The notes below the pieces were generated by a model. That model was not told the origin of the DNA. It ran no database searches and saw only the letters and a program-made list of their open reading frames with translations. Made by a program: the position numbers and the translations under genes. This document shows, piece after piece, positions 21,427-34,538 of a stretch of 64,000 nt of DNA; position 1 is the stretch's first letter, and each line of letters begins with the position of its first letter. Origin of the DNA: an uncultured virus (IMG/VR IMGVR_UViG_3300024354_000012) (taxonomy: Duplodnaviria > Heunggongvirae > Uroviricota > Caudoviricetes); the IMG/VR virus record IMGVR_UViG_3300024354_000012; one strand, written 5' to 3'.

Positions 21427-22106
21427 AGTACGAATACTATTACAATCAGATGCCAGGGCAAGAACCTTGGCGCAACAATCTGATCTATACCAGCCTTATG
21501 AGCGAAGATGGTACTGTATTCGTACAATGGTACTATAATGATACTGCCTATCACCAAGGGCAGAATCAGGTAGTGGATCCCGAATTGATGGAAGAAAAAT
21601 GGCAACGTGAGCTAAAGTATCTACAGCTGATGCGAGCTTCGCACAGTCATCTGGTGCCAGAAATACTAGACATCGATTACAAGTATAGAAAAATCTATCT
21701 GCGTGTCAATGGCAACGACTTTTGGCAGCGTAAGCTAGACGTTGGCAGTTTCGATGCTGTGTTGCCCAATTGGCGTGAACAGATGTTGGAAATCATAGAC
21801 GCACACAAGAAGCTAAAATTACACAAATACAGCATGCATCCCAGCAGCTATTTCCTAGTCGACGGACAGTTGAAAAGCATCAACTACTTTTTTACCTATC
21901 ACGACAGCGAACCTTATATCAGCATAGCCGACGTAGAAAGCCATATCTATTCTACGAGACAGGAACAGATGAAGAAAGTGTTAGCTGAAAGCACGATTAG
22001 CTGGAACGATCCGCAACCCTGGACCACTTTCGATTGGCTGTGTTGGAACAGCTTTAGATCAGAATATCCAGCAGATTTCGTAGAGGAAGCATTAAAACAT
22101 GTTTAA
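21423..22106 (+). CDS. hypothetical protein, possible kinase-like fold (paralog of 16926)
   Basis: YTSLMSEDGTVF, WQRE, PEILDID, MHPSSYF. Confidence 0.55.
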   Translation: MKYEYYYNQMPGQEPWRNNLIYTSLMSEDGTVFVQWYYNDTAYHQGQNQVVDPELMEEKWQRELKYLQLMRASHSHLVPEILDIDYKYRKIYLRVNGNDFWQRKLDVGSFDAVLPNWREQMLEIIDAHKKLKLHKYSMHPSSYFLVDGQLKSINYFFTYHDSEPYISIADVESHIYSTRQEQMKKVLAESTISWNDPQPWTTFDWLCWNSFRSEYPADFVEEALKHV

Positions 22107-22656
22107 ACTCATACGCTGGAACCCCGATCTAGATCTTTCGGACTTTTACAGGCGAGCAGCAGCCAAAGGTTTTGAAAATAATTCCAATCAGCAGATCATG
22201 ATCGATTCTTTGAGCAAAGAAGAACGATGGGCCGCATGGATTTTATATTATAATGATCTAGCTGCTGGTGCTGTAGCTGCGCATTCTTTTCCTGAGATGG
22301 GAGAAAATGCTTATAGGATCTGCGCCAGGACTTGTGTACTATCTGATGATCTGCCTTTACATCATTTGAGAACCAAATGGGGAATCATACGGCATCAAAA
22401 CTACACCGCACAGTTTTTCATACCTGCCTGTATAGAATGGGCCGGTCGTGACAAAGATCTTTACATCACTAGCAATGAAAGCAAATCAGGTAGCCAAAGA
22501 CTGGTACATGAAATTTTTTGTCCTTTATTAGCCAAAAGTGGTGTACTTTCCAAAACAAAGGATATATACTATAGAGGTCTTACACAAACTGCTTGGCGTC
22601 TCGATGTTGAGCTGTTTTTTAAGCAACTAGATCAATTTGGTAGATGGGTGTTGTAA
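22099..22656 (+). CDS. hypothetical protein, possible GNAT-like fold
   Basis: AWILYY...AGAVAAH...RICARTCV pattern. Confidence 0.45.
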   Translation: MFKLIRWNPDLDLSDFYRRAAAKGFENNSNQQIMIDSLSKEERWAAWILYYNDLAAGAVAAHSFPEMGENAYRICARTCVLSDDLPLHHLRTKWGIIRHQNYTAQFFIPACIEWAGRDKDLYITSNESKSGSQRLVHEIFCPLLAKSGVLSKTKDIYYRGLTQTAWRLDVELFFKQLDQFGRWVL

Positions 22657-22691
22657 AAATGCAACAATTTTACCAAAAATGAATCTAGGGG

Positions 22692-22720
22692 TTGACAACG
22701 AGACTAAATAAACTTATACT
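22692..22720 (+). promoter_or_regulatory. sigma70 promoter of leader/tRNA operon (TAAATA late motif in spacer)
   Basis: TTGACA-17nt-TATACT. Confidence 0.9.
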
Positions 22721-22761
22721 TGGACTAACTGTTAGAAATAACAGAAAGGAAACTGAAGCAA

Positions 22762-22911
22762 ATGAAATCATCGACATTACATAGACAAATGATACAGAAA
22801 GCGCAATTGGGCGGCTTTAATGCCACCTATTGGCCCGTATGTTCAATTAGTCTCGCTAATGATCGTACACCAGAGCTACAGCCGGGGTCCACGAAGGATA
22901 CGATGATGTAA
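22762..22911 (+). CDS. putative attenuator leader peptide (49 aa, all 20 amino acids)
   Basis: AGAAAGGA RBS; MKSSTLHRQMIQKAQLGGFNATYWPVCSISLANDRTPELQPGSTKDTMM; overlaps antiterminator. Confidence 0.75.
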   Translation: MKSSTLHRQMIQKAQLGGFNATYWPVCSISLANDRTPELQPGSTKDTMM

Positions 22912-22944
22912 CACAAATTACACATCAAGAATTCAAAGGACCCC
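22884..22944 (+). promoter_or_regulatory. antiterminator hairpin
   Basis: GGGGTCC pairs with GGACCCC; inner GATG-A-TGTAA pairs with TTACA-CATC. Confidence 0.75.
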
Positions 22945-22972
22945 AGGATTAAAAACCCTGGGGTTTTTGTTT
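22940..22972 (+). terminator. intrinsic terminator (attenuator)
   Basis: ACCCCAGG / CCTGGGGT stem followed by TTTTGTTT. Confidence 0.85.
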
Positions 22973-22986
22973 ATAAGGAATGAAGA

Positions 22987-23175
22987 ATGGAATGGAAATA
23001 CGAAAACATCGATCATAGCAAGCTCAATGATCGTATCGTCGAGCAAGCATATCATGGAACGCTTCCATCTGTTTTAAACGAGGAAAGTGTTCAGCGTATG
23101 ATCGCTGACAAGATTGAAAGAGCAAAACAGGAAAGAAACTGCTTAGTTAAGCTAGGTTACTTTACTGAGAACTAA
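22987..23175 (+). CDS. small hypothetical protein, first gene after attenuator
   Basis: AAGGA RBS; 62 aa. Confidence 0.6.
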   Translation: MEWKYENIDHSKLNDRIVEQAYHGTLPSVLNEESVQRMIADKIERAKQERNCLVKLGYFTEN

Positions 23176-23185
23176 AGTGTGTATA

Positions 23186-23410
23186 GGGAACGCGGCCCTG
23201 CTGGCACTATAAACATCGGCTATTAACGTGGGCGGCCTGGGGGATGAGAAGCCTGTGGCGGAAACGCAGGTGGTAAAAACCCAGTGTAGTTAAACACTCT
23301 CTCTTGCCTTTGAAACAGGCATGACAGCATAGCGGAGAGTGCTTAACTACCCACACCTACCCTTCTCCCCCTGACGGATAAAACGCATAGCGGCTGGAAT
23401 AGGTGTGGTA
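23186..23410 (+). ncRNA. structured non-coding RNA(s), unknown
   Basis: GC-rich multi-hairpin region; 16-bp stem 23286-23301/23335-23350; 9-bp stem 23351-59/23400-08. Confidence 0.55.
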
Positions 23411-23418
23411 CATAATTT

Positions 23419-23504
23419 GGAGGCGTGTGCCGAGCAGCGAAGGCAGCGGTCTGTAAAACCGTGACATAGAAACAGCGTAGGTGCGAGTCCTACCGCCTCC
23501 ACCA
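23419..23504 (+). tRNA. tRNA-Tyr(GTA)
   Basis: cloverleaf, loop CTGTAAA, long V arm, CCA. Confidence 0.9.
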
Positions 23505-23532
23505 TATTCACGCTAAATATTAGGCAAGGAGA

Positions 23533-23970
23533 ATGCCTATGATAGCTACTAAATTTACTACGACTAACAATGATTCTAATTTTACAACCATCGACGAGTT
23601 CAGTGGGTGGTTAAGGGATCTTGTAGGAATAGAATATTTTAAAGAACTGACTTATATTAGGTCGGATGCGATCATAGACGGAATTGCTACTCCTGTAGGT
23701 AGTTATTATTGGGAAGCAGAAACAAAGAGTGCGATTTATATGGTCTTTCATCGAGATCTGCTTGACGCTAAATCCTTCCAATTAAATTACCTTTCTAATG
23801 ATATAGCACGTTCTGTAGAGCAGGCCGTCAAAGAACACGGTTGGTCTATTAAGATGGAATCACTATCAGCAGATCCTGATCCGGAAGTTAGCAATTTCCA
23901 AATCATAGATCATCCTACAAACGTAGAAAACATACGCCCTAGCAGAAGAACAGAAATTAGCGGCCCTTAA
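23533..23970 (+). CDS. hypothetical protein
   Basis: TAAATA motif and AAGGAG RBS upstream; stop overlaps next tRNA. Confidence 0.65.
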   Translation: MPMIATKFTTTNNDSNFTTIDEFSGWLRDLVGIEYFKELTYIRSDAIIDGIATPVGSYYWEAETKSAIYMVFHRDLLDAKSFQLNYLSNDIARSVEQAVKEHGWSIKMESLSADPDPEVSNFQIIDHPTNVENIRPSRRTEISGP

Positions 23971-24038
23971 CTCAGCTGGACCAGAGTGCTTGTCTTCGAA
24001 ACAAGAAGTCGGGAGTTCGAATCTCTCAGGGCCGGCCA
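23961..24038 (+). tRNA. tRNA-Arg(TCG)
   Basis: loop CTTCGAA, TTCGAAT, CCA. Confidence 0.9.
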
Positions 24039-24044
24039 ATCATT

Positions 24045-24118
24045 ATCGGACTGATGTAACGGCAGCATGACGGTCTCCAAAACCGTTCGTTGGGGTTCAA
24101 ATCCCTAGTCCGGTGCCA
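24045..24118 (+). tRNA. tRNA-Trp(CCA)
   Basis: loop CTCCAAA, CCA end. Confidence 0.9.
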
Positions 24119-24121
24119 TTT

Positions 24122-24199
24122 ACCACTTTAGCTCAACTGGATAAGAGCACAACCTTGCGAAGGTTGAGGTTAGGGGTTCGAGTCCCTTAAGTGGTGCCA
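24122..24199 (+). tRNA. tRNA-Arg(GCG)
   Basis: loop TTGCGAA, CCA end. Confidence 0.88.
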
Positions 24200-24612
24200 A
24201 AGATGTCTGGATGTGAAGGTTTAACTGTAACATTTATGACTTTGCTGACAAATTTAAAATGTCGGCTCAACGTATCAAATATTTCGATGTTAAGTGCTTG
24301 ACCTGCTCGGCTATAACTGTTACTGCCTATAGCACCATAGTAATCTATGTCAAGACCTTTGCGTCGACCATAGTCAGGAAATACACCACAAAGAAAGAGA
24401 CATTCGTCTCCTAAGCTCTTAGCATCATGTGAGTTTTTTATCCTATGATAAGTTTCTATGAAACTATCTTCGGGCATCCAGTTTGGACGATCGATATGGC
24501 TGGCGAGCAACATGACTACATATTGCTCGACGAACAACGGCAGCTCATACCCGTAACTATCTTTAGTTTGGTTAATGAGCAGCTTGAATGCTGAAACGTA
24601 TTCATCGCTCAT
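24187..24612 (-). CDS. hypothetical protein antisense within tRNA array (start refined)
   Basis: MSDEYV...LGDECLFLCGVFP...YY; TAAATA-N5-ATG start. Confidence 0.7.
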   Translation of the reverse strand: MSDEYVSAFKLLINQTKDSYGYELPLFVEQYVVMLLASHIDRPNWMPEDSFIETYHRIKNSHDAKSLGDECLFLCGVFPDYGRRKGLDIDYYGAIGSNSYSRAGQALNIEIFDTLSRHFKFVSKVINVTVKPSHPDIFGTT

Positions 24613-24630
24613 AATAATATTTATTTCAGA

Positions 24631-24704
24631 GGTGTCTTTAGTGTAGTGGTAGCAAAGCTGACTGTGAATCAGCAGGCGAGGGTTCGATTCCCCAAGGCAC
24701 CCCA
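24631..24704 (+). tRNA. tRNA-His(GTG)
   Basis: loop CTGTGAA, G-1/C73 arrangement, CCA. Confidence 0.85.
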
Positions 24705-24708
24705 TTTT

Positions 24709-24860
24709 AAGGGATAGACGATAGTTTAGAGTCCCTGCCAGTCTAGGCACAGTGGGGTTGACTGTGTTGACACTATAGTATGACTGAAGCCGGTATGTTA
24801 AACTTGACTATTCGAGACAATCTAGCGAGTCCTCCCAGGAGGATAGTTAGGCGCCCGACT
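24709..24860 (+). ncRNA. structured intergenic RNA, unknown
   Basis: hairpins GCACAGT/ACTGTGT, TCCTC/GAGGA, GGGA/TCCC between two tRNAs. Confidence 0.45.
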
Positions 24861-24865
24861 TTTAT

Positions 24866-24943
24866 CTGTGTGTAATGTCAGCCCGGGAGACGGCCTGGTT
24901 TGGAGCCAGGAGGCCGTAGGTTCAAATCCTACCACACAGACCA
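24866..24943 (+). tRNA. tRNA-Pro(TGG)
   Basis: loop TTTGGAG, CCA. Confidence 0.88.
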
Positions 24944-24948
24944 AATAT

Positions 24949-25024
24949 GCCAGTTTAGCTGATGTGGTCATAGCGGTGGTCTGAAGAACCATTGAACTAG
25001 GTTCGATTCCTAGAGCTGGCACCA
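24949..25024 (+). tRNA. tRNA-Phe(GAA)
   Basis: loop CTGAAGA, CCA. Confidence 0.9.
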
Positions 25025-25034
25025 AATTTTTTAG

Positions 25035-25062
25035 TTGACACGTTTTTTAGATGTGCTATATT
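25035..25062 (+). promoter_or_regulatory. sigma70-type promoter
   Basis: TTGACA-16nt-TATATT. Confidence 0.7.
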
Positions 25063-25079
25063 AGTATCATAACTGGCTA

Positions 25080-25154
25080 GGGCGTGTAGCTTAAAGGTGA
25101 AGCCGGCCGCTCATAACGGTCTTAGTGTGTGTTCGAGTCACACCGCGCCCACCA
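25080..25154 (+). tRNA. tRNA(CAT), probably Ile2 (lysidine type)
   Basis: loop CTCATAA; Ile2 vs Met assigned by resemblance only. Confidence 0.8.
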
Positions 25155-25169
25155 GTTATTAAAGTTTTT

Positions 25170-25268
25170 GCCCCTGTAGCTTAATGGTAAAGAAGCGAGC
25201 TTATACCTCGCCAAAGCACAGGCCAGATAAGCCTGAGTGTGCAGGTTCGAGTCCTGCCAGGGGCACCA
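25170..25268 (+). tRNA. tRNA-Ile(TAT) with very long variable arm
   Basis: loop CTTATAC; about 29-nt variable region; CCA. Confidence 0.7.
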
Positions 25269-25273
25269 TATGC

Positions 25274-25349
25274 GGGCGTATAACTCAGTCGGTAGAGTAG
25301 CTGACTCTTAATCAGTTTGTCGTAGGTTCGATCCCTACTGCGCCTACCA
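25274..25349 (+). tRNA. tRNA-Lys(CTT)
   Basis: loop CTCTTAA, CCA. Confidence 0.9.
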
Positions 25350-25354
25350 AGTAT

Positions 25355-25430
25355 GCCGTCGTAGTGTTAGTGGCTAGCACGACTGTTTGTGGAGCAGTAG
25401 GAGTTGGATCGAAACCAACCGCCGGTACCA
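25355..25430 (+). tRNA. atypical tRNA(GTG), His anticodon
   Basis: loop TTGTGGA; T-loop ATCGAAA; A73; acceptor mismatch. Confidence 0.65.
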
Positions 25431-25435
25431 TTTAA

Positions 25436-25530
25436 GCACTAGCCGTAAGGCCGGCGATAAGAAGGAAGCACGAGCATAGCTGTGTTTGCTTGGTCGGTGG
25501 ATTGGAACGACTCACTCTTTTCACTAGTGC
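25436..25530 (+). ncRNA. stem-closed intergenic RNA, unknown
   Basis: GCACTAG/CTAGTGC closing stem with internal hairpins. Confidence 0.45.
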
Positions 25531-25535
25531 CCTTT

Positions 25536-25613
25536 GCCCCTGTGGACAAATTGGTAAAGTCATCTCTCTCAAAAGGAGAAGTTCTCTCAGTTCGAATCTG
25601 AGCAGGGGTACCA
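25536..25613 (+). tRNA. tRNA-Leu(CAA), short variable arm
   Basis: loop CTCAAAA, Leu-type D loop, CCA. Confidence 0.8.
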
Positions 25614-25628
25614 CTTATAAATAGACTG

Positions 25629-27116
25629 ATGAAAGGTCTTATTTTTAATATTTTGGGTTCACCGACCCGAACGCTAGGCGCATATCGTATAGCTCATTGT
25701 CTCAGAGAAGAAGGTTGGGACATCGAAGTTATCGACTTCTGCGAAGTTTGGGAGTTAGATGAATTACAAGAGTTAGCAAAATCCCGGATCGACAAAGACA
25801 CTGTCTTTCTAGGATTTAGTTTTCTTTTCAGCAACATGTCTGAAAGATTTGAAAACTATATCAAATGGTTGAAAGTTACTTTCCCAGATGTATTGTTGAT
25901 TTCAGGAGGACAAGTAGCTGCTCAGTTTGATACTAGTTCTTTTGATTTACATATAAAAGGTTTCGGTGAACTAGCACTGTTAGAATTCCTTAGATGGTAC
26001 AAAGGCAACGGACCTAGACCGAGATTTGATTTGTTATCAAAAGGGTGTAAGCTCATAGATGCTAACAAACAGTATCCGGCATATCCAATGAAGAGTCTCA
26101 TGGTCAAGTATGAAGATAGAGATTTCATAGACTCAAACGAATGGTTGACTATAGAGTTTGCTCGAGGTTGTAAATTTAAATGTGACTTCTGTAACTTTCC
26201 AATCTTAGGAGTCAAGGGCGACTATAGCAGAGATGCCGAAGACGCTAGGATACAATTACAAGACAGCTATGATAGATTCGGAGTATCCAACTATCTCGTA
26301 TCAGATGAAACATTTAATGACCGAACTGAAAAGATCAGCAAGTTCGCTGATGTTGTAGAACAGCTTTCATTCCGACCTTGGTTCTCAGGATTCGTCAGGG
26401 CAGATTTATTGATATCTCGTCCTAGAGATAGAGAAGAACTGCTTAGGATGAATTTCCTAGGACAGTATTATGGTATAGAAAGTTTCAACAGAGATGCTGC
26501 CAGGATAGTTGGCAAAGGAATGGATCCTGAAAAGATCAAACAAGGGTTGATAGATATAAAAAATTATTATCATTCAAATGGTACAAAATTGTATCGAGGA
26601 TCTATTAGTTTGATCATAGGGTTAGCAAAAGAAAATAGAGAAAGCCTAGACAATACTATTAGATGGTTGACAGAGAATTGGAGTGGCGAATCATTCAGTC
26701 CGTTTGTATTAGAAGTGCCTATAGGTTCGTTCGATACAAAATCTTCGATAAGTTCAAACTATCAATCATATGGTTATAGATTGATGAAAGATTCTGATGT
26801 AAAACGCAGCGCAAACTTGAATGTCGGGTATGTTAGGAGAGAAACAGCTCTTAGTGAAGACTGTCTAAAATGGGAGCATGACGATCTTAACATAGTAGAA
26901 GCTACCCAGATACAGGATGAATGGTTAGAAGTTAGAGATAATCCTAACAATAAATTCACTGTAAACTGTTTTAGTTTAAGCGATGTCGGTAGACACTTAC
27001 CTATATCTGAAAAATTAAAACTGCCTCAAAAGGCAATCGACATGAGTACAGATTGGAATCATCCAGATTTCAAAGAACTGATGGCGAATTATAAGTTCAA
27101 AAAATTATCTTTGTGA
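25629..27116 (+). CDS. B12-binding-like radical SAM protein
   Basis: ISGG...GFGE, ARGCKFKCDFC, SDETF, GIESF. Confidence 0.88.
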   Translation: MKGLIFNILGSPTRTLGAYRIAHCLREEGWDIEVIDFCEVWELDELQELAKSRIDKDTVFLGFSFLFSNMSERFENYIKWLKVTFPDVLLISGGQVAAQFDTSSFDLHIKGFGELALLEFLRWYKGNGPRPRFDLLSKGCKLIDANKQYPAYPMKSLMVKYEDRDFIDSNEWLTIEFARGCKFKCDFCNFPILGVKGDYSRDAEDARIQLQDSYDRFGVSNYLVSDETFNDRTEKISKFADVVEQLSFRPWFSGFVRADLLISRPRDREELLRMNFLGQYYGIESFNRDAARIVGKGMDPEKIKQGLIDIKNYYHSNGTKLYRGSISLIIGLAKENRESLDNTIRWLTENWSGESFSPFVLEVPIGSFDTKSSISSNYQSYGYRLMKDSDVKRSANLNVGYVRRETALSEDCLKWEHDDLNIVEATQIQDEWLEVRDNPNNKFTVNCFSLSDVGRHLPISEKLKLPQKAIDMSTDWNHPDFKELMANYKFKKLSL

Positions 27117-27145
27117 TTGACAGCAGTCAGTTAATGTAGTACAAT
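27117..27145 (+). promoter_or_regulatory. sigma70-type promoter
   Basis: TTGACA-17nt-TACAAT. Confidence 0.85.
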
Positions 27146-27157
27146 AATCAAACTTAG

Positions 27158-27235
27158 GGACAGGTGCCAGAGAGGTCCAATGGAACAGTCTGCAAAACTG
27201 TAAAGCCGTGGGTTCAAATCCCACCCTGTCCTCCA
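27158..27235 (+). tRNA. tRNA-Cys(GCA)
   Basis: loop CTGCAAA, U73, CCA. Confidence 0.9.
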
Positions 27236-27262
27236 CGTTGTTTGACAATCAAATCAGTTAAT

Positions 27263-27337
27263 GCTCCGGTCGTCTATCGGTCAGGACGCTGCCCTTTCAA
27301 GGCGGAAAGAGGGGTTCGACTCCCCTTCGGAGTACCA
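27263..27337 (+). tRNA. tRNA-Glu(TTC)
   Basis: loop CTTTCAA, CCA. Confidence 0.9.
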
Positions 27338-27343
27338 TTTAAT

Positions 27344-27419
27344 GCGGGCGTAGCTCAGTTGGTAGAGCATTACCTTGCCAAGGTAAATGTCGTCGGTTCG
27401 AACCCGATCGCCCGCTCCA
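27344..27419 (+). tRNA. tRNA-Gly(GCC)
   Basis: loop TTGCCAA, CCA. Confidence 0.92.
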
Positions 27420-27474
27420 ATTTTTTAAAGGAGGAAACTATCATGGGAGATGATGGTAAATCTGGTAAACGTTT

Positions 27475-27550
27475 GGGCCCTTAGCTCAGTAGGTAGAGCA
27501 GCGGACTTTTAATCCGTTGGTCGTGAGTTCGAATCTCACAGGGCCCACCA
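27475..27550 (+). tRNA. tRNA-Lys(TTT)
   Basis: loop CTTTTAA, CCA. Confidence 0.92.
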
Positions 27551-27648
27551 TTACCATATTGAAATATACTGTAGCGGGTTCGCAAGTATGAGTCGCATTC
27601 TAAAGAGTGTCCTTGAACTGAATATAGTGTATTTCAATATGTTAATGG
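27548..27648 (+). ncRNA. long-stem-closed intergenic RNA
   Basis: about 19-bp stem 27555-73/27623-41 (two G.U), extendable by CCATTA/TAATGG. Confidence 0.55.
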
Positions 27649-27722
27649 CAGTATAGCATAGCGGCTAATGCGGCACCTTCATACGGTGTATATCGTAGGT
27701 TCGAGTCCTACTACTGCTACCA
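27647..27722 (+). tRNA. tRNA-Met(CAT), elongator
   Basis: loop TTCATAC, CCA. Confidence 0.85.
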
Positions 27723-27731
27723 TAAAAATTC

Positions 27732-27807
27732 GGGCCAGTAGCTCATCTGGGAGAGCGCCTCGTTTGCACCGAGGAGGTAGCGGGTTCAAGTCCTGTCTGG
27801 TCCACCA
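27732..27807 (+). tRNA. tRNA-Ala(TGC)
   Basis: loop TTTGCAC, G3.U70, CCA. Confidence 0.92.
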
Positions 27808-27813
27808 TGTTAT

Positions 27814-27888
27814 GGCTCGTTCATATAGTGGCTATTATGCCTGCCTGTCTAGCAGGACATAGGGGTTCGATTCCCCTACGAGTCGCCA
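27814..27888 (+). tRNA. tRNA-Asp(GTC)
   Basis: loop CTGTCTA, CCA. Confidence 0.9.
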
Positions 27889-27895
27889 ACTCTAT

Positions 27896-27971
27896 TCCGG
27901 AGTAGCACAGAGGTAGTTGCAGCGGACTGTTAATCCGCGTGTCGTTGGTTCGATCCCAACCTCCGGAGCCA
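27896..27971 (+). tRNA. tRNA-Asn(GTT)
   Basis: loop CTGTTAA, CCA. Confidence 0.92.
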
Positions 27972-27974
27972 AGT

Positions 27975-28189
27975 TTTGAGAGTGTCAGCAAGAGAAAGAC
28001 ACGCTGGTTAGGTTTCTTCGAAGGACCGACCCAGTAGAAGGTGGCGGGTTCGATGCCCGGCGGATCGGAAGATCCGTGTACAAGGTGGCGTACTATCTGG
28101 TCCGGTATCCCGAGTGACGTACCGAGTCCCGCTAGCTAATCCGGAGAAGGGTGAATGGTAGCAATAACGATGGTGCTACAACTCTCAAA
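27975..28189 (+). ncRNA. highly structured RNA of about 215 nt, unknown
   Basis: TTTGAGAGT/ACTCTCAAA closure; T-loop-like CGGGTTCGATGCCCG; several GC hairpins. Confidence 0.6.
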
Positions 28190-28197
28190 TTCATTAT

Positions 28198-28272
28198 TGG
28201 GGAATCGTCTAATCGGTAGGACACCTGACTTTGACTCAGGCAGTATTGGTTCGAGTCCAGTTTCCCCAGCCA
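28198..28272 (+). tRNA. tRNA-Gln(TTG)
   Basis: loop CTTTGAC, U1-A72, CCA. Confidence 0.9.
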
Positions 28273-28273
28273 C

Positions 28274-28348
28274 ACCGGAGTAGCTCAGAGGTAGAGCAGC
28301 GGCCCGATAAGCCGTTGGTCGTTGGTTCAATTCCAACCTTCGGTACCA
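28274..28348 (+). tRNA. tRNA-Ile(GAT)
   Basis: loop CCGATAA (C33), CCA. Confidence 0.85.
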
Positions 28349-28356
28349 GAATACGG

Positions 28357-28385
28357 TTGACACAGTCAACAAAAGACTACATAAT
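28357..28385 (+). promoter_or_regulatory. sigma70-type promoter
   Basis: TTGACA-17nt-CATAAT. Confidence 0.7.
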
Positions 28386-28394
28386 ATAAACAAT

Positions 28395-28477
28395 GCCCCG
28401 ATGGTGGAATTGGTAGACACGCTGGTCTTAGAAGCCAGTACTTCGGTGTGCGAGTTCGAGTCTCGCTTGGGGCACCA
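28395..28477 (+). tRNA. tRNA-Leu(TAG)
   Basis: loop CTTAGAA, V arm, CCA. Confidence 0.92.
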
Positions 28478-28620
28478 TTAGTTAGTAGCATAGCTCGTCG
28501 GCCTACGATCAAGGCTAACCTTGTCCGAAGCGGGAAGCCTATGATACTAGTAACTGGTCTGTGTAACAGATCAACAATAGGTAGCAAGAGGATAGTAAAC
28601 TATGCTACTAACTAATGGTG
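28473..28620 (+). ncRNA. RNA closed by perfect 21-bp inverted repeat
   Basis: CACCATTAGTTAGTAGCATAG (28473-93) / CTATGCTACTAACTAATGGTG (28600-20). Confidence 0.6.
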
Positions 28621-28628
28621 AAAGTTTA

Positions 28629-28703
28629 GGGTGATTAGCTCAGTGGTAGAGCGCCTCGTTTACACCGAGGATGTCGGGAGTTCGACCCTCTCATCACCCA
28701 CCA
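28629..28703 (+). tRNA. tRNA-Val(TAC)
   Basis: loop TTTACAC, CCA. Confidence 0.92.
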
Positions 28704-28708
28704 ATTAT

Positions 28709-28798
28709 GGAAGTGTGGTCGAGTCTGGTTTATGGCAACGGTCTTGAAAACCGTCGAACCGAAAGGTTCCGTGAGTTCGAATCTCACCGCTTCCGCCA
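28709..28798 (+). tRNA. tRNA-Ser(TGA)
   Basis: loop CTTGAAA, long V arm, CCA. Confidence 0.92.
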
Positions 28799-28812
28799 TA
28801 TTAAATAGTATC

Positions 28813-29601
28813 ATGAAAGCTATAAAGATACTGATCTGCGGACTGCCAGGAGCAGGTAAAACAACACTGGCTAAAGCATTACAATCTAGATTAGGTGATA
28901 CCGAACACCTAGAAGCAGATGCTGTTAGAAAACGGTTTGATGATTGGGACTTCAGTGAAGAAGGACGAATCAGGCAAAGCTTCAGGATGAAACTGCTGTC
29001 AGATGAAAGCGAAGCACGTTACGTGATCGCCGACTTCATAGCACCTCTAGAAGCTACTAGAAAAAACTATTCAGCAGATTGGACCATTTGGGTTGACACT
29101 ATCCGCGAAGGCAGATATGAAGATACCAACAAGATGTTCCAAGAACCAGACATATATGATTTCCGTATCACTGAACAAGATGCTGAAAAATGGGCAGCGT
29201 TTATCTCTGATCATATATTGGCCGATCGCAGACGTCCTGTATGGAATAATCGCAAAGAAACTGTACAGATGTTAGGTCGTTGGCAACCATGGCATGATGG
29301 GCATCGTGCTCTATTCGAAAGAGCGTTGGCCAAGACTGGTCAAGTCTGTATCATGGTGCGTGATTGCCAAGGTTGGAATGATAGTAATCCGTTCAACTTC
29401 TACGATGTGGCTAGATTTATCAAGAGAGATCTAGATCCTTTGTATCAAGGTCAATTCCAAATCGTGCTTGTGCCTAATATCGTGAACATCACGTATGGTA
29501 GGGATGTAGGTTACAAGATCGAACAAGAACATTTTGATCAATCTATCACTGATATCTCTGCTACAAAGATAAGAGAATCGTTGAATATCAAGAAGGATTG
29601 A
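28813..29601 (+). CDS. adenylylsulfate kinase-like domain fused to nucleotidyltransferase-like domain (start refined)
   Basis: GLPGAGKT, ADAVR, DFSEEGR; GRWQPWHDGH and ISATKIR. Confidence 0.8.
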   Translation: MKAIKILICGLPGAGKTTLAKALQSRLGDTEHLEADAVRKRFDDWDFSEEGRIRQSFRMKLLSDESEARYVIADFIAPLEATRKNYSADWTIWVDTIREGRYEDTNKMFQEPDIYDFRITEQDAEKWAAFISDHILADRRRPVWNNRKETVQMLGRWQPWHDGHRALFERALAKTGQVCIMVRDCQGWNDSNPFNFYDVARFIKRDLDPLYQGQFQIVLVPNIVNITYGRDVGYKIEQEHFDQSITDISATKIRESLNIKKD

Positions 29602-29602
29602 T

Positions 29603-30244
29603 ATGAGTAGCGTTGTTGTTACAGGTGAAAAGAACATAGCGTTCGTACACAATCCCAAAGTGGCTGGTATGAGTATCAAGAGTTGGTTGATATCTAACAG
29701 AAAGAACAGCACGTATCAAGAATTTGATCTCAAAGTAACGTTCAATGATCTAAAAAACACAGTAGACAATTTGCCATTTAGCTTTAGCATAGTTAGAAAC
29801 CCTTGGGACCGCATGGTCAGTGGTTACTATGAACTGCGTAGATGGTATGATAATCCAGGAAAAGCCAGCCAAGACAATTTAAATTTTGTCCGAGACTATT
29901 TTAATAGATCTCCGTTTCCATCTTTCGATCAGTTTATGAACGAATTTCCACAAGACGAAATGTGGTCTGTGTTATATCCTATGCTGTCTCCATATCCTCC
30001 TACATGGCCTAAAGGTGCCGTGACACAGAAGCAGTATGTTGACGGTGTAAATTTGATATTGCGATATGAAAATATCGAAGAAGATTTCAAACAGATACAA
30101 AAGATCTATGATTGTGATGTGCCATTGCCCATGATCAATACTTCCGAAAATAATGACTATAGATCATACTACAACGATAGGACTAAAGCCATAGTAGCTG
30201 CGTTCTTCCAAGAAGACATAGACACATTCAGATACAGTTTCTAA
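29603..30244 (+). CDS. sulfotransferase family 2 protein
   Basis: FVHNPKVAG (5'PSB), VRNPWDRMVSGY (3'PB). Confidence 0.85.
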   Translation: MSSVVVTGEKNIAFVHNPKVAGMSIKSWLISNRKNSTYQEFDLKVTFNDLKNTVDNLPFSFSIVRNPWDRMVSGYYELRRWYDNPGKASQDNLNFVRDYFNRSPFPSFDQFMNEFPQDEMWSVLYPMLSPYPPTWPKGAVTQKQYVDGVNLILRYENIEEDFKQIQKIYDCDVPLPMINTSENNDYRSYYNDRTKAIVAAFFQEDIDTFRYSF

Positions 30245-30305
30245 AATCTTATACCACGATAAGTATCATTGTTCCGCAGTGCGGTAAAAAACAAGGAGGA
30301 CTATC

Positions 30306-30725
30306 ATGAGTATCATGGACTTTATCCATAAGATAGAACAAGTCAGTGAAACTGCTGCTAGAAGACTGTCTCATCGTGCTTTACACGCGGCCGCAACTGT
30401 CTATAGTGATGCTAAAGAATTAGCCGACAAGTCGGCCAAGGACGTAGACAAAGCCAAGGCCAAACTAGAAGATGCCATGAAGAAGGCATATCAACACGCC
30501 GATGCTGCCCATTCAGCCGCAGTCGACGCATATGAAAAAGCCAATGCTGAAGCACAAAGATTGGCACAAGAAGTCGAAGACGCTGCTTTCGAAGCAGCAA
30601 ATAAACTGAATGCTCTTATCAATGCTGGGTTACAACCTATTCCCGGCAAAGAAGAGAAAAAAGAAGAACCAGAACCTTATTCTAGAGCAAATGCTGTAGA
30701 CAAAGATTCTGTTTCAGTGTTATAA
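30306..30725 (+). CDS. Ala-rich coiled-coil hypothetical protein
   Basis: AAGGAGG RBS; helical composition. Confidence 0.7.
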   Translation: MSIMDFIHKIEQVSETAARRLSHRALHAAATVYSDAKELADKSAKDVDKAKAKLEDAMKKAYQHADAAHSAAVDAYEKANAEAQRLAQEVEDAAFEAANKLNALINAGLQPIPGKEEKKEEPEPYSRANAVDKDSVSVL

Positions 30726-30734
30726 TAGAACATT

Positions 30735-30826
30735 GGTGAGGTGGATGAGAGGCTTAAATCAGCAGTTTGCTAAACTGTCGTAGGCAGAAATGTCTACCGC
30801 GGGTTCGAATCCCGCCCTCACCGCCA
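30735..30826 (+). tRNA. tRNA-Ser(GCT)
   Basis: loop TTGCTAA, long V arm, CCA. Confidence 0.92.
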
Positions 30827-30849
30827 AGTTCAAATATAAGTAAGAATAC

Positions 30850-30925
30850 GCTGCTTTAGCTCAGCCGGTAGAGCAACTGCCTTGTAAGCAGTAGGTCGTC
30901 AGTTCGAATCCGACAAGCAGCACCA
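30850..30925 (+). tRNA. tRNA-Thr(TGT)
   Basis: loop CTTGTAA, CCA. Confidence 0.92.
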
Positions 30926-30939
30926 TAATAAGGCAATAG

Positions 30940-31557
30940 ATGAAATACGCTTATATCAATCCAACTGTGATAGCTGTAGACGACCTGCCAGCAGATGTCT
31001 TTGCCTATCTCAAGAACATGGTAGATACAGCGCATCAAATGACTCAGTTCAACGATGCTGGAGATCAATCCATTAGCATTAGAGGCGGTCAACAGATACA
31101 GCTATTGCCTAACGACTTTGGTCAGGATGTCACTGTATTGAAAAGTTTCGTGGAACAACGATGCTATGATTACATGGATACACTGACTAGACAATCGGGT
31201 AAACCTGATCTAGTCAATCTTGAACCAGAACTTGTGAGTGCCTGGACTATCAGACAAACAGCTGGTAACTATCAGGCCTTACATACACATAACGCACATA
31301 TCAGCGGCAACATCTACATAGATGTTCCAGACCTAGATCCAGGAAGTCAATCTTCAGATGCCAATCTAGAATTTAGATTTCCTGTGGTCAAGGATCCCAG
31401 CAAGTTTACTTTTATAGATCAATTGAGATTTTCTCCGCGACCCATGATGATGGTCATGTTTCCTAGCTATCTTCCACATACAGTATACCCGTGGAATGGA
31501 CAAGGACACAGAACTATTTTGGCATGGGACGTGAAATTAAAGCCAAAAATGGCTTGA
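30940..31557 (+). CDS. putative 2OG-Fe(II) oxygenase
   Basis: HTH...ISGNIY...FPSYLPHTVYP...R. Confidence 0.8.
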   Translation: MKYAYINPTVIAVDDLPADVFAYLKNMVDTAHQMTQFNDAGDQSISIRGGQQIQLLPNDFGQDVTVLKSFVEQRCYDYMDTLTRQSGKPDLVNLEPELVSAWTIRQTAGNYQALHTHNAHISGNIYIDVPDLDPGSQSSDANLEFRFPVVKDPSKFTFIDQLRFSPRPMMMVMFPSYLPHTVYPWNGQGHRTILAWDVKLKPKMA

Positions 31558-31582
31558 CAGCATACACAAAATATCGTATTAT
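31554..31582 (+). promoter_or_regulatory. sigma70-type promoter
   Basis: TTGACA-17nt-TATTAT. Confidence 0.8.
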
Positions 31583-31587
31583 AGAGT

Positions 31588-31850
31588 TGTTGCGTAGGAA
31601 ACTGCGCAGCCGGCGAGGTAAAGGGTAGATGAGGATAGACAATCGTTCGGCTTCATGCCGAGCTCCAATACTGGCAAACAGTCTTGAAAACTGTCCGTGC
31701 TTGTGTGTTCCGATACCAAAATAGAATGTCTGTTGATAGTCGGAAATAAGCAGGCCTCTGTGCTATGTACATTGAGGTTTGTCAAAGGCGTTATCGTTGA
31801 TCCGCCCCTGTCAGTTGTCCGGTCTATTACTTGACCTTTTACCAACCCGT
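31588..31850 (+). ncRNA. structured leader or ncRNA of about 260 nt with tRNA-Ser anticodon stem-loop mimic
   Basis: GGTAAAGGGT/ACCTTTTACC closure; ACAGT-CTTGAAA-ACTGT hairpin. Confidence 0.6.
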
Positions 31851-31871
31851 TATTAATCAAAGGAAAAAGAA

Positions 31872-32444
31872 ATGAACATCACTCTACGCAAGGCAAACGC
31901 ACTACAAACAGCAATCAATGATGCTATCCGTAGCATCAAGGTCGAAACTTCGATCGAACTGAACGAATTCCAAGATGTAGCAGCAGAATTGAAAGCTGCC
32001 AATGACCAACTGTTTGCCAGCGATGCTCGTAGACAGAAGTTGCTGTTGGCTCTTTACAACATCCGCGGTCTAGTAGCCGCAGCCAACGCTACTAATGACA
32101 TCGATCTCAACCTAACCAAGGCTGCGTTCATCGACAAGCGCATCGGCCAGTTGGAAGAAATGGCTAACCAAAAGCCAGTGACTGATGTCGCTGTGCTCAC
32201 AGGCAAGCTGGAAAAGATCAAGAATGACAAGGGCGAACATCGTAGCCGCATTTACGGCTACAGCGATACTGTCGCTACTTCTGTGCTCAGCCAGGAACAG
32301 ATCGACAAGGTCAAGGCTGAGATCTTGAATCTCAAGAAGCAGAAGCAAAAGATCAACGATTCTATCTTGGAAGCTAACATCAAGACAGAAATTCCGTTGA
32401 GCGACGATGTCGCAGAAACATTGAAAGTAGAAAATCTACTGTAA
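31872..32444 (+). CDS. coiled-coil protein, DIP1984/DUF6847-like
   Basis: MNITLRKA...KINDSILEANIKTEI pattern; AAGGA RBS. Confidence 0.6.
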   Translation: MNITLRKANALQTAINDAIRSIKVETSIELNEFQDVAAELKAANDQLFASDARRQKLLLALYNIRGLVAAANATNDIDLNLTKAAFIDKRIGQLEEMANQKPVTDVAVLTGKLEKIKNDKGEHRSRIYGYSDTVATSVLSQEQIDKVKAEILNLKKQKQKINDSILEANIKTEIPLSDDVAETLKVENLL

Positions 32445-32450
32445 GTTTAT

Positions 32451-32525
32451 AGCAGGGTAGAGAAGCAGTAACTCACCAGGTTCATACCCTGGAGATCGGT
32501 GGTGCGATTCCACCCCCTGCAACCA
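32451..32525 (+). tRNA. tRNA-fMet-like (CAT)
   Basis: 1:72 mismatch, loop TTCATAC, CCA. Confidence 0.8.
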
Positions 32526-32529
32526 GTTT

Positions 32530-32606
32530 CGGAGTGTAGCGCAGCCTGGTAGCGCAACTGGTTTGGGACCAGTGGGTCGGGAGTTCGAATCTCTCCACTC
32601 CGACCA
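32530..32606 (+). tRNA. tRNA-Pro(TGG)
   Basis: loop TTTGGGA, C1-G72, CCA. Confidence 0.92.
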
Positions 32607-32621
32607 TTTATTGAGGTATAT

Positions 32622-32969
32622 ATGAGTGACGGCGGCAAAGGTAGTAAACCAAGACCATTTAGTGTTGATCAAAAGACATTCGATAATAACTGGGATAATA
32701 TCTTTAACAGAAAAAAGAAAACAGACGCAGAACTGTTTGATGAAGCTGTCATGAAAGATGAATACTACGATTTGGAGAATGAAATGCAGATGCCTGTAGA
32801 AGAAAACGCAGATGAAATTGGTAAATGTGGTTGTGGTCGCAGCCCCACTGGTAAGTGTATCGGTTGGCATGGACTGACCGAAGAAGACTATCGAGTCAAG
32901 CTAGCAGAATGGGAAGAAAAGAAACTAAGCGATCGCAAAGTCGCAGCCAGCTATATCAAAGAAGATTAA
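32622..32969 (+). CDS. CDGSH-type iron-sulfur domain protein
   Basis: CGCGRSPTGKCIGWH resembles CxC-x2-S-x4-C-D-G-S-H. Confidence 0.65.
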   Translation: MSDGGKGSKPRPFSVDQKTFDNNWDNIFNRKKKTDAELFDEAVMKDEYYDLENEMQMPVEENADEIGKCGCGRSPTGKCIGWHGLTEEDYRVKLAEWEEKKLSDRKVAASYIKED

Positions 32970-32976
32970 TAAAAAT

Positions 32977-33052
32977 GCGGGTGTAACTCAGTTGGTAGAG
33001 TGATAGCCTTCCAAGCTATATGTCGCGAGTTCGAACCTCGTCGCCCGCTCCA
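32977..33052 (+). tRNA. tRNA-Gly(TCC)
   Basis: loop CTTCCAA, CCA. Confidence 0.92.
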
Positions 33053-33063
33053 GGATTTTTTCT

Positions 33064-33633
33064 ATGATACCGGTCATCGATAGTAACGACATCTTTAAGA
33101 CATATGATTTCAGTTCTGTCATAACACAACAGGATGTCGATCAGGCTATTTCTAGTATCGAGCGTGTCATAGCAGATGGTAACTATTTTGAAAATAGTCC
33201 CAAGTTCCAAACCAAAGAAAACATATTCCAAAGACCAGAATCCTGTTGGTTGAAGTTTCGTATGAGCTTTATATTCAGTGTGTTCATGTATCTAGGACGT
33301 GAAGCAAAGATATCAAATATGATGGCTTGGTCATTTATGACCAATCTACACGGTGCCGAGGATCGAGATAAACTTTGGCATCATCATCACCATAAAACAA
33401 ATACTAACATGCTCAGTGGCATAATGTATCTTCATATACCCGACGATGTTACCAATCGGGATACCTGCGGAACAGAAATGGCTCCAAACGGTCTAGAATC
33501 AGATGACAGACTGTTTATTAGACCATATAATTATACTTGGTTGATATATCCAAGCAGGATATGGCACCGCCCGGGAATAGTACAGAGTAACAACTATAGA
33601 TTCGTATTAGCAGGAGATATCGAATACAGTTAA
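33064..33633 (+). CDS. putative 2OG-Fe(II) oxygenase
   Basis: WHHH...LSGIMYL...YPSRIWHRP...R. Confidence 0.7.
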   Translation: MIPVIDSNDIFKTYDFSSVITQQDVDQAISSIERVIADGNYFENSPKFQTKENIFQRPESCWLKFRMSFIFSVFMYLGREAKISNMMAWSFMTNLHGAEDRDKLWHHHHHKTNTNMLSGIMYLHIPDDVTNRDTCGTEMAPNGLESDDRLFIRPYNYTWLIYPSRIWHRPGIVQSNNYRFVLAGDIEYS

Positions 33634-33639
33634 AAACAT

Positions 33640-33717
33640 CTGCCCGTAGCTCAGCCGGATTAGAGCAACAGCCTTCTAAGCTGTGGGTCGGGGGTTCGAA
33701 TCCCTCCGGGCAGGCCA
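33640..33717 (+). tRNA. tRNA-Arg(TCT)
   Basis: loop CTTCTAA, CCA. Confidence 0.92.
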
Positions 33718-33720
33718 CTA

Positions 33721-33796
33721 CTCTCCGTAGTTCAACAGGATAGAACAAGACACTCCTAAGGTTTAGATGGCTGTTCGAGTCAGCCCGGGGAGGCCA
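33721..33796 (+). tRNA. tRNA-Arg(CCT)
   Basis: loop CTCCTAA, weak anticodon stem, CCA. Confidence 0.8.
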
Positions 33797-33799
33797 AAT

Positions 33800-33882
33800 G
33801 CGAGCGTGGAGAAATCGGTAAACTCAGGAGACTTAAAATCTCCCGCTTCGGCTTGTGGGTTCGAGTCCCACCGCTCGCACCA
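33800..33882 (+). tRNA. tRNA-Leu(TAA)
   Basis: loop CTTAAAA, V arm, CCA. Confidence 0.92.
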
Positions 33883-33885
33883 AAG

Positions 33886-33959
33886 GCTCCTATAGTTAAG
33901 TGGTATAACACATCCTTGGTAAGGATGAATTACAAGTTCAATTCTTGTTGGGAGCACCA
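33886..33959 (+). tRNA. tRNA-Thr(GGT)
   Basis: loop TTGGTAA, CCA. Confidence 0.88.
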
Positions 33960-34034
33960 TCTTTATCTGTATGTTTTTAAAGGTATTTGTCCAAAATAAG
34001 TAATAAGTTGGCCTTTAAAAACATGGAGGTTATT

Positions 34035-34538
34035 ATGAGAAACATAGCAATAGTCTGTGTTGCCCTGTTATTAGGTGGCTGTCAGACTACAACACAAGCA
34101 GCTAGACCCTACATGGAAGAAGCACATCGTATGGAGGGCATGGATGCTAAAACTAATCGTAAAGAACTCAAGCATTATATGAATTCGGCCAGAACAGGCA
34201 CCGTAGATCCTTTACATATTCCTTGGTGTGCTGGTTGGGCAAATGCCGTATTACAGAATAATGGAGTACAAGGAACTCATAGTCTAATGGCTCGCAGTTT
34301 CTTGAAATGGGGTCATCCTACACATAATCCACAAGAAGGCGACATCGTGGTTCTGCGTAGAGGTCGAGCCGAATGGAGTGGTCATGTGGGATTCTTCAAA
34401 GGATATGAAGTAGTCGATGGCGTCACTTATGTCAAGGTATTGGGAGGCAATACTGACAAGAGTGTCGCGATCGGATACTTTCCGACTAATTATGTCCTAG
34501 CATTTAGAGCACCAAATTATTCTCCCAAAATGAATTAG
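34035..34538 (+). CDS. TIGR02594/NlpC-P60-like peptidoglycan hydrolase with lipobox (start refined)
   Basis: LLGGC lipobox, PWCA, GDIVV, GHVGF, LGGN; GGAGG RBS. Confidence 0.8.
   Translation: MRNIAIVCVALLLGGCQTTTQAARPYMEEAHRMEGMDAKTNRKELKHYMNSARTGTVDPLHIPWCAGWANAVLQNNGVQGTHSLMARSFLKWGHPTHNPQEGDIVVLRRGRAEWSGHVGFFKGYEVVDGVTYVKVLGGNTDKSVAIGYFPTNYVLAFRAPNYSPKMN

Follow-up and report, generated by a model that had tools for sequence, protein, structure and literature searches.

A candidate leader-peptide attenuator with a complete amino-acid set upstream of tRNA genes in uncultured jumbo phages

A stretch of 64,000 nucleotides (nt) from an uncultured virus of the Caudoviricetes (IMG/VR record IMGVR_UViG_3300024354_000012), hereafter referred to as the window, carries at positions 22692 to 22972 of its plus strand a compact leader element, which consists of a strong promoter, a short open reading frame (ORF) with codons for all 20 amino acids and an intrinsic terminator, and which stands upstream of a large array of transfer RNA (tRNA) genes. 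The comparative evidence presented here suggests that this element is a ribosome-mediated transcription attenuator which would allow read-through unless the whole leader is translated in time, and which would sense every aminoacyl-tRNA; we consider this reading probable, with room for doubt. With regard to the architecture alone, i.e., a translated leader with a terminator/antiterminator switch placed before tRNA genes, our confidence is high. The central proposal, namely that a leader-peptide attenuator is present here which requires all 20 amino acids, had been put forward in a note made from the letters of the window alone (the original prediction), and it is supported by the homologs, the completeness of the amino-acid set, the covariation and the genomic context described below.

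All the parts that the original prediction had named in the window, namely the promoter, the AGAAAGGA ribosome-binding box, the ORF at 22762-22911, the GGGGTCC sequence, the hairpin around the stop codon and the terminator, were found as named (coordinates are compiled in Table 1), except that the promoter, which had been described as perfect, matches 11 of the 12 consensus positions. Transcription probably starts near 22727. Counting also confirmed that the 49 codons of the leader comprise 37 different ones and that all 20 amino acids are encoded, the set being complete by codon 38 (peptide read by eye). There are no codon runs in the leader, and each of the 20 amino acids occurs in approximately one to six copies. 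Three short segments, designated boxes A, B and C, are central to what follows: box B can pair either with box A, which lies within the ORF, to give an antiterminator, or with box C to give the terminator. The stop codon is located 26 nt 5' of box B and, in the window, 18 nt after the end of box A.

A family of leaders with a complete amino-acid set

Relatives of the leader peptide with 47-65% identity (L005-L009), detected by a scan that was confirmed by tblastn, head tRNA arrays in other viral contigs. For a broader collection, we employed a pattern composed of GGGGTCC, 35-60 nt and AAGGACCCCAGG, which matched 114 stretches of viral contigs and at least 121 stretches of metagenome contigs; this and all the family counts given below are counts among the matches listed, and the metagenome side is a lower bound. 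When the 3' arm of the terminator was also required, 157 distinct elements were retained, 151 of which had at least 230 nt upstream. GC-rich chance matches, a tandem palindromic repeat and six elements near contig ends had been dropped before the latter count. Each leader was taken to begin with the first ATG that follows the predicted start of transcription. A promoter was present at the homologous place in all 151 elements, with 10, 11 and 12 of the 12 consensus positions matched in 4, 73 and 74 of them, respectively. Similarly, all 151 elements contained an ATG-initiated ORF ending between boxes A and B, with a length of 42-53 codons in 139 cases; the other 12 ORFs were longer and showed an extra in-frame ATG upstream. 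A second sample, anchored on a different motif (ATGATCGNACACCAGA), yielded 99 distinct segments, consisting of 72 family members and 27 unrelated chance matches.

Altogether, the family comes from uncultured jumbo-phage contigs and comprises at least 180 distinct leader peptides (143 from a first set and 37 from a second) of 42-65 residues. Promoter, ORF length and reading frame are retained despite the divergence of the peptides; conservation of the ORF length in homologous loci was among the checks that the original prediction had called for. The leader had no protein-family match in Pfam or PHROGs. A search against 5.8 billion proteins returned only the leader itself, a result that is uninformative on distribution since short ORFs are rarely called as genes. 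A loose-pattern scan of genome contigs gave no family members among the 120 matches listed, which is likewise uninformative on prokaryote genomes. A linkage of the element to the 185-amino-acid gene upstream of it was considered and rejected, given that relatives of that gene (L013-L031) lack the element; the element travels with the tRNA array and not with this gene. We also observed tandem arrays of a palindromic unit, AAGGACCCCGGGGTCCTTTT, in metagenome contigs L155, L169, L179, L207, L210, L211, L216, L234, L237, L240 and L273. These contigs were discarded as false positives of the A-to-B pattern, unrelated to the leader family.

The ORF bears a clear coding signature. Of 146 distinct coding sequences, every one has an open leader frame and none has an open +1 or +2 frame; the insertions and deletions in alignment A1 are multiples of three, and the ATG start is conserved in the family alignments. 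Of the 146 sequences, 141 end with TAA, and 127 encode Lys, Gln or Asn directly after the initial Met. The leader is probably translated. At the same time, some segments are constrained at another level. Depending on the subfamily, the GGGGTCC of box A is read in frame 2 (124 elements), frame 0 (23) or frame 1 (4), and being read in three frames it must be conserved as RNA or DNA. With regard to the peptide itself, 136 of 143 leaders have Trp in the same column, and the motifs AKQAG and NDRTPE recur. In the block encoding NDRTPE, the sequence ATGATCG and adjacent bases are at least 90% conserved (alignments A1, A2 and A3), although the leaders otherwise diverge strongly. No conserved pairing partner for this block was found by RNAalifold in 75 leaders. 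The block (ACACCAGAG) was tried as an anti-antiterminator partner of box A, with four of five pairs formed as judged by eye, and rejected: it is unchanged in those leaders where box A carries a G to A change. As a side observation, the block AATGATCGTACACCAGAG includes a GATC site.

The complete amino-acid set proved to be a general property of the family. Among the 143 distinct peptides of the first set, 127 contained all 20 amino acids, 13 contained 19 and three contained 18. The second set, drawn from members with non-canonical boxes, added 37 distinct peptides, of which 35 had 20 amino acids and two had 19. Overall, 162 of 180 distinct leaders are complete, which bears out the composition that had been pointed out in the single leader of the window; the outlier L337, which is outside the 180 counted, is complete as well. 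By chance, all 20 amino acids would be present with a probability of about 0.03-0.05 at 46-49 residues, whether the composition is that of the phage proteome or that of the family, and the frequency expected at 46 residues is about 3%, or about 10% even with a uniform composition. As a control, 46-residue windows of long phage ORFs contained all 20 in 27 of 1067 cases. The six-frame ORFs of 42-53 amino acids in the window did so in one of 68, which was the leader itself. At the codon level, where a comparison with random 49-codon windows had been proposed, at least 37 distinct codons were reached in one of 974 control windows. The composition of a single peptide is unusual, not extreme; it is the comparative evidence that is decisive.

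Relatedness among the leaders is insufficient to explain this completeness, because the peptides are too divergent, because resampling does not reproduce it, and because of the changes seen on a tree. The median pairwise peptide identity is 0.38, and 21 of the 27 clusters formed at 60% identity are complete. In the resampling, 14 conserved columns, which by themselves guarantee 11 amino-acid types, were fixed and the remaining positions redrawn. This gave 21.7 ± 3.7 complete peptides of 143 with the composition of the variable columns of the family (maximum of 31 in 300 simulations) and 7.9 ± 2.4 with that of the phage proteome, compared with the 127 observed. On a FastTree phylogeny of the 143 elements, residues present only once changed columns at least 26 times in the case of Cys (19 columns), at least 22 times for His, 18 times for Tyr, 23 times for Phe and once for Trp, some of these changes being possibly alignment shifts. 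The 16 incomplete leaders of this set require no fewer than 12 separate changes on this phylogeny, and Cys is missing from only one of the 143. Since the rare residues wander and yet are almost never lost, the comparison of sequences indicates that selection is on the presence of each amino acid, not on its position. In 107 of 143 leaders, all 20 are present upstream of the box-A codon. No other peptide family is known to us with residues that shift position within a set that remains complete.

The leaders also differ from phage genes in their codon choice. In the leader codon-usage counts (L001-L394), which are not phylogenetically independent and are partly forced by the conserved blocks, the share of NNT among the Asp, Phe, His and Tyr codons was about 0.9, compared with 0.59-0.67 in phage genes. 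In those same counts, GAG, GGG, GCG and CCC, which are rare in phage genes, were favoured, and GCT, ACT, CCT, GGT, ATC and AGC were avoided. This choice fits what might be expected of a speed-sensitive leader.

Two mutually exclusive helices and the proposed switch

Both the GGGGUCC:GGACCCC pairing and the competing terminator, which the original prediction had described for the window, show compensatory changes across the family. Covariation was analyzed in the 72 members that had been collected with an anchor outside boxes A, B and C. At position 1 of the A:B helix, G-C was found in 35 members, A-U in 34, G.U in two and an A/C mismatch in one, and standard pairs were formed in 503 of the 504 A:B cells. 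At position 7 of the B:C helix, the distribution was 36 C-G, 25 U.G and 11 U-A. L337 combines GGAGUCU with AGACUCC, i.e., two further compensatory pairs, and the 3' arm of its terminator (CCUGGAGU) has changed to match; in L380, an A-U pair at B:C position 8 has been swapped to U-A. The hairpin that spans the stop codon is conserved by structure and not by sequence, with UGUAA/UUACA, GAGUU/AACUC and GUGUA/UACAC among the variants in alignment A1. A comparable pattern was seen by eye, without a formal count, for the 5'-terminal hairpin of the transcript in the same alignment, where CTGTT/AACAG, GCGTT/AACGC and GCACT/AGTGT occupy the same place. The RNAalifold consensus of 75 leaders consisted of the terminator only, with 11 pairs (AGGACCCCAGG with CCUGGGGUUU) present in 75 of 75 sequences and followed by the U tract.

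The predicted energetics place the two structures in close balance. For the transcript of the element in the window, which extends from about 22727 to 22972, the folding energy is -67 kcal/mol and the z score -4.39, and none of 200 shuffled sequences folded equally well. Its minimum-free-energy (MFE) structure contains the GGGGUCC:GGACCCC pairing around an inner hairpin with the stop codon, and its centroid structure is the terminator. Over 99 representatives of the family, the mean energies were -26.0 kcal/mol for the antiterminator and -26.3 kcal/mol for the terminator. For the segment between the boxes, stability exceeded that of shuffled versions in 98 of these 99 (mean z of -3.0); the stop codon is situated either at the edge of the loop or in the 5' arm of the inner hairpin. 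For the full-length naked RNA, the MFE structure was the antiterminator in 65 representatives, the terminator in 33 and another fold in one, and the mean A:B pair probability was 0.65.

The outcome changed when a ribosome at the end of the leader was simulated, a check that had been suggested in the original prediction. With a footprint of 30 nt (positions -15 to +14 around the stop codon kept single-stranded), 94 of 99 representatives preferred the terminator, by a margin above 3 kcal/mol. The distance from the end of box A to the stop codon is 15 nt in 58 of the 99 and 14-18 nt in 86, which, with usual footprint sizes, would correspond approximately to the trailing edge of a terminating ribosome.

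In the mechanism that we propose, the host RNA polymerase would start at the strong promoter and a ribosome would load onto the 49-codon leader. Leader RNA that is naked or slowly translated would prefer the antiterminator, that is, the A:B helix extended by the stop-codon hairpin; this would block the B:C terminator, so that transcription would proceed into ORF2, the structured RNA (both described below) and the tRNA genes. The terminator would form only if, during synthesis of boxes B and C by the polymerase, a ribosome occupied the last codons or the stop codon, as such a ribosome would melt the stop hairpin and keep A and B apart. Complete translation of the leader would need all 20 aminoacyl-tRNAs. 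Hence, a ribosome held up at any hungry codon before box A would leave A free and turn the unit on, and the element would report a shortage of any charged tRNA, or generally slow decoding, with the supply of phage tRNAs as the response. The switch presumably works in this direction. As to the natural cause of the shortage, codon-usage mismatch, decay of host tRNAs and tRNA-cleaving defences are plausible candidates; the last might include anticodon nucleases such as PrrC, RloC or PARIS, as the original prediction had proposed.

The downstream unit and the tRNA array

The placement of the leader upstream of tRNA genes, which had been noticed in the window, is general. A context count with a general pattern comprised 197 distinct elements, 107 of them with at least 1 kilobase (kb) downstream. 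All 107 were followed within 1.4 kb by tRNA genes on the same strand, from 1 to 11 each, and none by tRNA genes on the opposite strand. The median distance to the first tRNA was 447 nt, and tRNA-Tyr was the commonest first gene (39 elements). In the upstream flank, a tRNA was present in only 15 of 124 elements.

In the window, a 62-codon ORF, termed ORF2, and a conserved structured RNA separate the terminator from tRNA-Tyr. At the place of ORF2, 81 of 107 elements have an ORF of 40-69 amino acids, whose start lies 15-24 nt past the matched terminator. The members of the ORF2 family are basic, 50-62 amino acids long, and share the motif TL(T/S)xEQxxKLIQDKFERA. ORF2 had no match in Pfam, PHROGs, PDB sequences or the Atlas, and its predicted structure consists of two helices, with a predicted local distance difference test (pLDDT) score of 74. 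For the structured RNA, a consensus fold from 25 sequences contained 43 pairs, 25 of which showed compensatory changes. Its motif TAYAGGNAACGNG occurs 3' of the leader terminator in 37 of 107 elements, and no Rfam match was detected at E values up to 10 over 22690-23430. In L337, L340, L342 and L381, the structured RNA follows directly after the terminator, without ORF2.

A 145-amino-acid ORF with its own AAGGAG is located downstream of tRNA-Tyr. Because no plus-strand promoter-like site with at least 10 of 12 matches was found between 22720 and 25035, ORF2, the structured RNA, tRNA-Tyr, this ORF and the tRNAs up to 25024 would depend on read-through, as far as the region 22987-25024 can be judged from its sequence. 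Promoters with 11 of 12 matches stand directly before later tRNA blocks, at 25035, 27117, 28357 and other positions. The original prediction had listed internal promoters at these three positions and at 23514; the one at 23514 was not found in the promoter scan. The caveat of the original prediction, that only part of the array may depend on the leader, holds.

With respect to transcripts, 24 riverine metatranscriptome runs carry the stretch. They were available as contigs, which neither show transcript ends nor distinguish RNA from DNA. The contigs of four runs break at 22943-22972 and start upstream of the promoter. At 22943-22972, the sequence is common to several related phages, the depth rises, and joints lead to other ORF2 variants.

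The IMG/VR virus record that holds the window is 101.6 kb long with an estimated completeness of 29%, which indicates a jumbo phage. By ARAGORN, 33 tRNA genes were called from 23419 to 34614, every one on the plus strand. Rfam added two further matches, at 25170-25265 and 25355-25427, to give the 35 tRNA genes covering all 20 amino acids that had previously been described. These two matches, both on the plus strand and uncalled by ARAGORN, scored 59.8 and 44.4 bits, respectively; the length of the first, 96 nt, might reflect a long variable arm or an insertion. Protein genes are interspersed in the array between 25629 and 31557 on the plus strand (Table 1). No match in cultured phages was obtained by blastn or by tblastn with the leader. 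A large neighbouring protein gave weak partial matches to cyanophage tail-fibre genes and nothing stronger. No cultured relative or host is known for the phage that carries the window.

Table 1. Features of the leader element, the downstream unit and the tRNA array in the window
Feature	Position	Strand	Remarks
Sigma-70-type promoter	22692..22720	+	TTGACA 22692-22697, 17-nt spacer, TATACT 22715-22720; 11/12 consensus
5'-terminal hairpin of leader transcript	22729..22744	+	CUGUUA/UAACAG; predicted by folding
Purine-rich Shine-Dalgarno-like box	22744..22751	+	AGAAAGGA; about 11 nt 5' of ATG, spacing longer than usual
Leader ORF	22762..22911	+	49 codons plus TAA; 20 amino-acid types, 37 distinct codons
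NDRTPE block	22858..22875	+	AATGATCGTACACCAGAG; conserved at the nucleotide level including wobble positions
Box A, antiterminator 5' strand	22884..22890	+	GGGGUCC; inside codons 41-43; MFE pairing with 22938-22944
Stop-spanning hairpin, inner part of antiterminator helix	22902..22926	+	GATGATGTAA 22902-22911 : TTACACATC 22918-22926; covers last sense codons and TAA
Box B	22938..22947	+	GGACCCCAGG; common to antiterminator (with A) and terminator (with C); GGACCCC 22938-22944
Intrinsic terminator stem	22940-22947 : 22957-22964	+	ACCCCAGG : CCTGGGGT, then T tract; stem-loop and U tract 22940-22972
Box C and U tract	22957..22972	+	CCUGGGGU; 3' arm and tail of intrinsic terminator
ORF2	22987..23175	+	62 amino acids; about 15 nt past U tract; own AAGGA; no own promoter found
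Conserved structured RNA	23176..23418	+	About 200-240 nt; between ORF2 and tRNA-Tyr, same transcription unit
tRNA-Tyr	23419..23504	+	ARAGORN; nearest tRNA gene 3' of leader; array ends at 34614
Radical SAM and B12-binding protein	25629-27116	+	Within tRNA array
P-loop kinase	28732-29601	+	Matches phrog_10255; within tRNA array
Sulfotransferase-like protein	29603-30244	+	Within tRNA array
2OG-Fe(II) oxygenase	30940-31557	+	Within tRNA array

Competing readings and relation to known attenuators

Several observations weigh against an attenuator that senses every aminoacyl-tRNA. Regarding translation, a Shine-Dalgarno-like 4-mer lies within 20 nt of the start in just 86 of 146 sequences; in the window, the AAGGA is about 11 nt from the ATG, a weak or distant site in comparison with the AAGGAG that neighbouring genes carry 7-8 nt upstream. 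The amino-acid set is missing one or two members in 18 of 180 leaders, becomes complete no earlier than the box-A codon in 36 of 143, and owes its Val solely to the tail in 18 of 143. Furthermore, the Asp and Glu codons located three to five codons before box A are often unique, and a ribosome stalled there should partly cover A, which implies unequal sensing across amino acids. A sensor of composition alone would not account for the positional motifs AKQAGFMP.YW and NDRTPE or for the conservation of their wobble bases; possible roles are those of pause signals, of nascent-peptide features or of a site bound by a protein or an RNA. At the RNA level, independent covariation events are few, perhaps three or four, although each of them preserves both helices. 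RNAalifold showed no conserved structure in the ORF body of 75 leaders, and no pause or anti-antiterminator (1:2) hairpin; nothing visible would synchronize polymerase and ribosome as in trp. Finally, the strong internal promoters imply that the leader gates only part of the array.

Three other explanations were considered. The same RNA switch could sense overall translation capacity or transcription-translation coupling, with ribosome availability, the shut-off of initiation during infection or a global slowing of elongation as candidate signals, and with the even composition of the leader as that of an average message. This would be in line with read-through as the default in the absence of a ribosome (the antiterminator being the MFE structure in 65 of 99 representatives), with the weak ribosome-binding site and the lack of codon runs, and with the preference for slowly decoded NNU codons and phage-rare codons, which would make the leader generally speed-sensitive. 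However, an average message needs no full set, whereas 162 of 180 leaders are complete against the 3-15% expected, and completeness has been held through repeated relocation of single rare residues; we regard this explanation as unlikely.

It is more improbable still that the ORF encodes a functional micro-protein followed by an ordinary terminator, with the amino-acid set and the A:B complementarity as by-products. The positional motifs (the Trp column in 136 of 143 leaders, AKQAG and NDRTPE) are what such a protein would show, and a strong promoter and a strong terminator flank the ORF as they would an ordinary small gene. Yet its rare residues shift columns and nevertheless stay, box A is read in three frames, A and B covary, and the two folds are isoenergetic. 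In addition, ORF2 begins 15-24 nt past the terminator without a promoter of its own, the element is always found at tRNA arrays, and the peptide has no protein-family match. The notion of a non-coding small RNA of about 240 nt, extending from promoter to terminator and containing the ORF by accident, draws on the z score of -4.39 of the transcript relative to shuffles and on the blocks whose nucleotide conservation extends to wobble positions. Against it stand the frame that is open in 146 of 146 sequences compared with 0 of 146 for the other frames, the insertions and deletions in threes, and the conserved ATG and TAA; moreover, RNAalifold found no conserved structure in the ORF body and Rfam gave no match. 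This last explanation appears to us highly improbable.

Returning to the attenuator that senses aminoacyl-tRNAs, a further reading would make it a universal alarm, in which every amino acid has at least one test codon, and in which the cleavage or depletion of any single host tRNA, through anticodon-nuclease defences or phage-induced decay of host tRNAs, would stall the ribosome and turn on a rescue operon consisting of replacement tRNAs, ORF2 and the structured RNA. We put this forward tentatively, as a possibility that is doubtful at present. If true, the alarm would be the first known monitor of the whole decoding alphabet at once and a counter-defence sensor of phages.

The attenuator itself, if correctly read, would explain how large phages time the expression of their tRNA arrays. 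It would also entail that leaving out any one amino acid or tRNA raises read-through, and that the loss of a unique codon blinds the sensor to that amino acid. The design could be used as a compact biosensor of translation health, and the large and diverse family amounts to a mutational series made by nature, with single residues moving about and the full set kept. A full-text literature search, with supplements and subscription journals outside its scope, found no published all-amino-acid leader and no attenuator preceding phage tRNA genes, although one may be in print.

Among the features of leader attenuators, the element has a promoter-proximal ORF, an intrinsic terminator before the controlled genes and a covarying antiterminator that uses the 5' arm of the terminator; a codon run for the sensed amino acid and a conserved pause (1:2) hairpin are absent. 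No match to an Rfam leader (Trp, His, Thr, Leu, Phe) or to a T-box was obtained at E values up to 1 over 22000-35500 or up to 10 over 22690-23430. The T-box riboswitches nonetheless offer one parallel, in that tRNA charging is sensed and read-through is achieved via an alternative antiterminator. However, a T-box binds one specific uncharged tRNA directly and without translation, whereas here the ORF is conserved. Likewise, the pyrBI leader (pyrL) resembles the element insofar as the outcome is set by the distance between ribosome and polymerase through a leader of about 45 codons without enrichment of a single amino acid. In pyrBI, a close ribosome prevents the terminator and the signal is UTP-dependent pausing; here, in contrast, a close ribosome should favour termination, because the stop codon precedes box B by 26 nt.

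The trp and his leaders (trpL, hisL) share with the proposed switch that an early stall frees the antiterminator strand and that a ribosome at the stop codon favours the terminator. They differ in sensing one amino acid each. Moreover, an untranslated trp leader terminates via its 1:2 hairpin, whereas read-through is the predicted preference of the naked RNA in 65 of 99 representatives of the present family. The multivalent attenuators of enterobacterial amino-acid operons respond to two or more amino acids each: the ilvGMEDA leader senses Leu, Val and Ile, and the thr leader Thr and Ile. The element has the same layout, with a short ORF close to the promoter and an antiterminator that uses one strand of an intrinsic terminator; it would likewise sense more than one amino acid, with the position of the ribosome deciding the outcome. 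The ilv and thr leaders rely on codon runs for two or three amino acids, whose synthesis they control, whereas the present leaders have no runs and no detected 1:2 hairpin, contain all 20 amino acids and precede phage tRNA genes. To our knowledge, leader-peptide attenuators described so far watch one to three amino acids and control their synthesis; in the family reported here, textbook leader-peptide attenuation has apparently been rebuilt as a detector of all 20 that controls viral tRNA genes.

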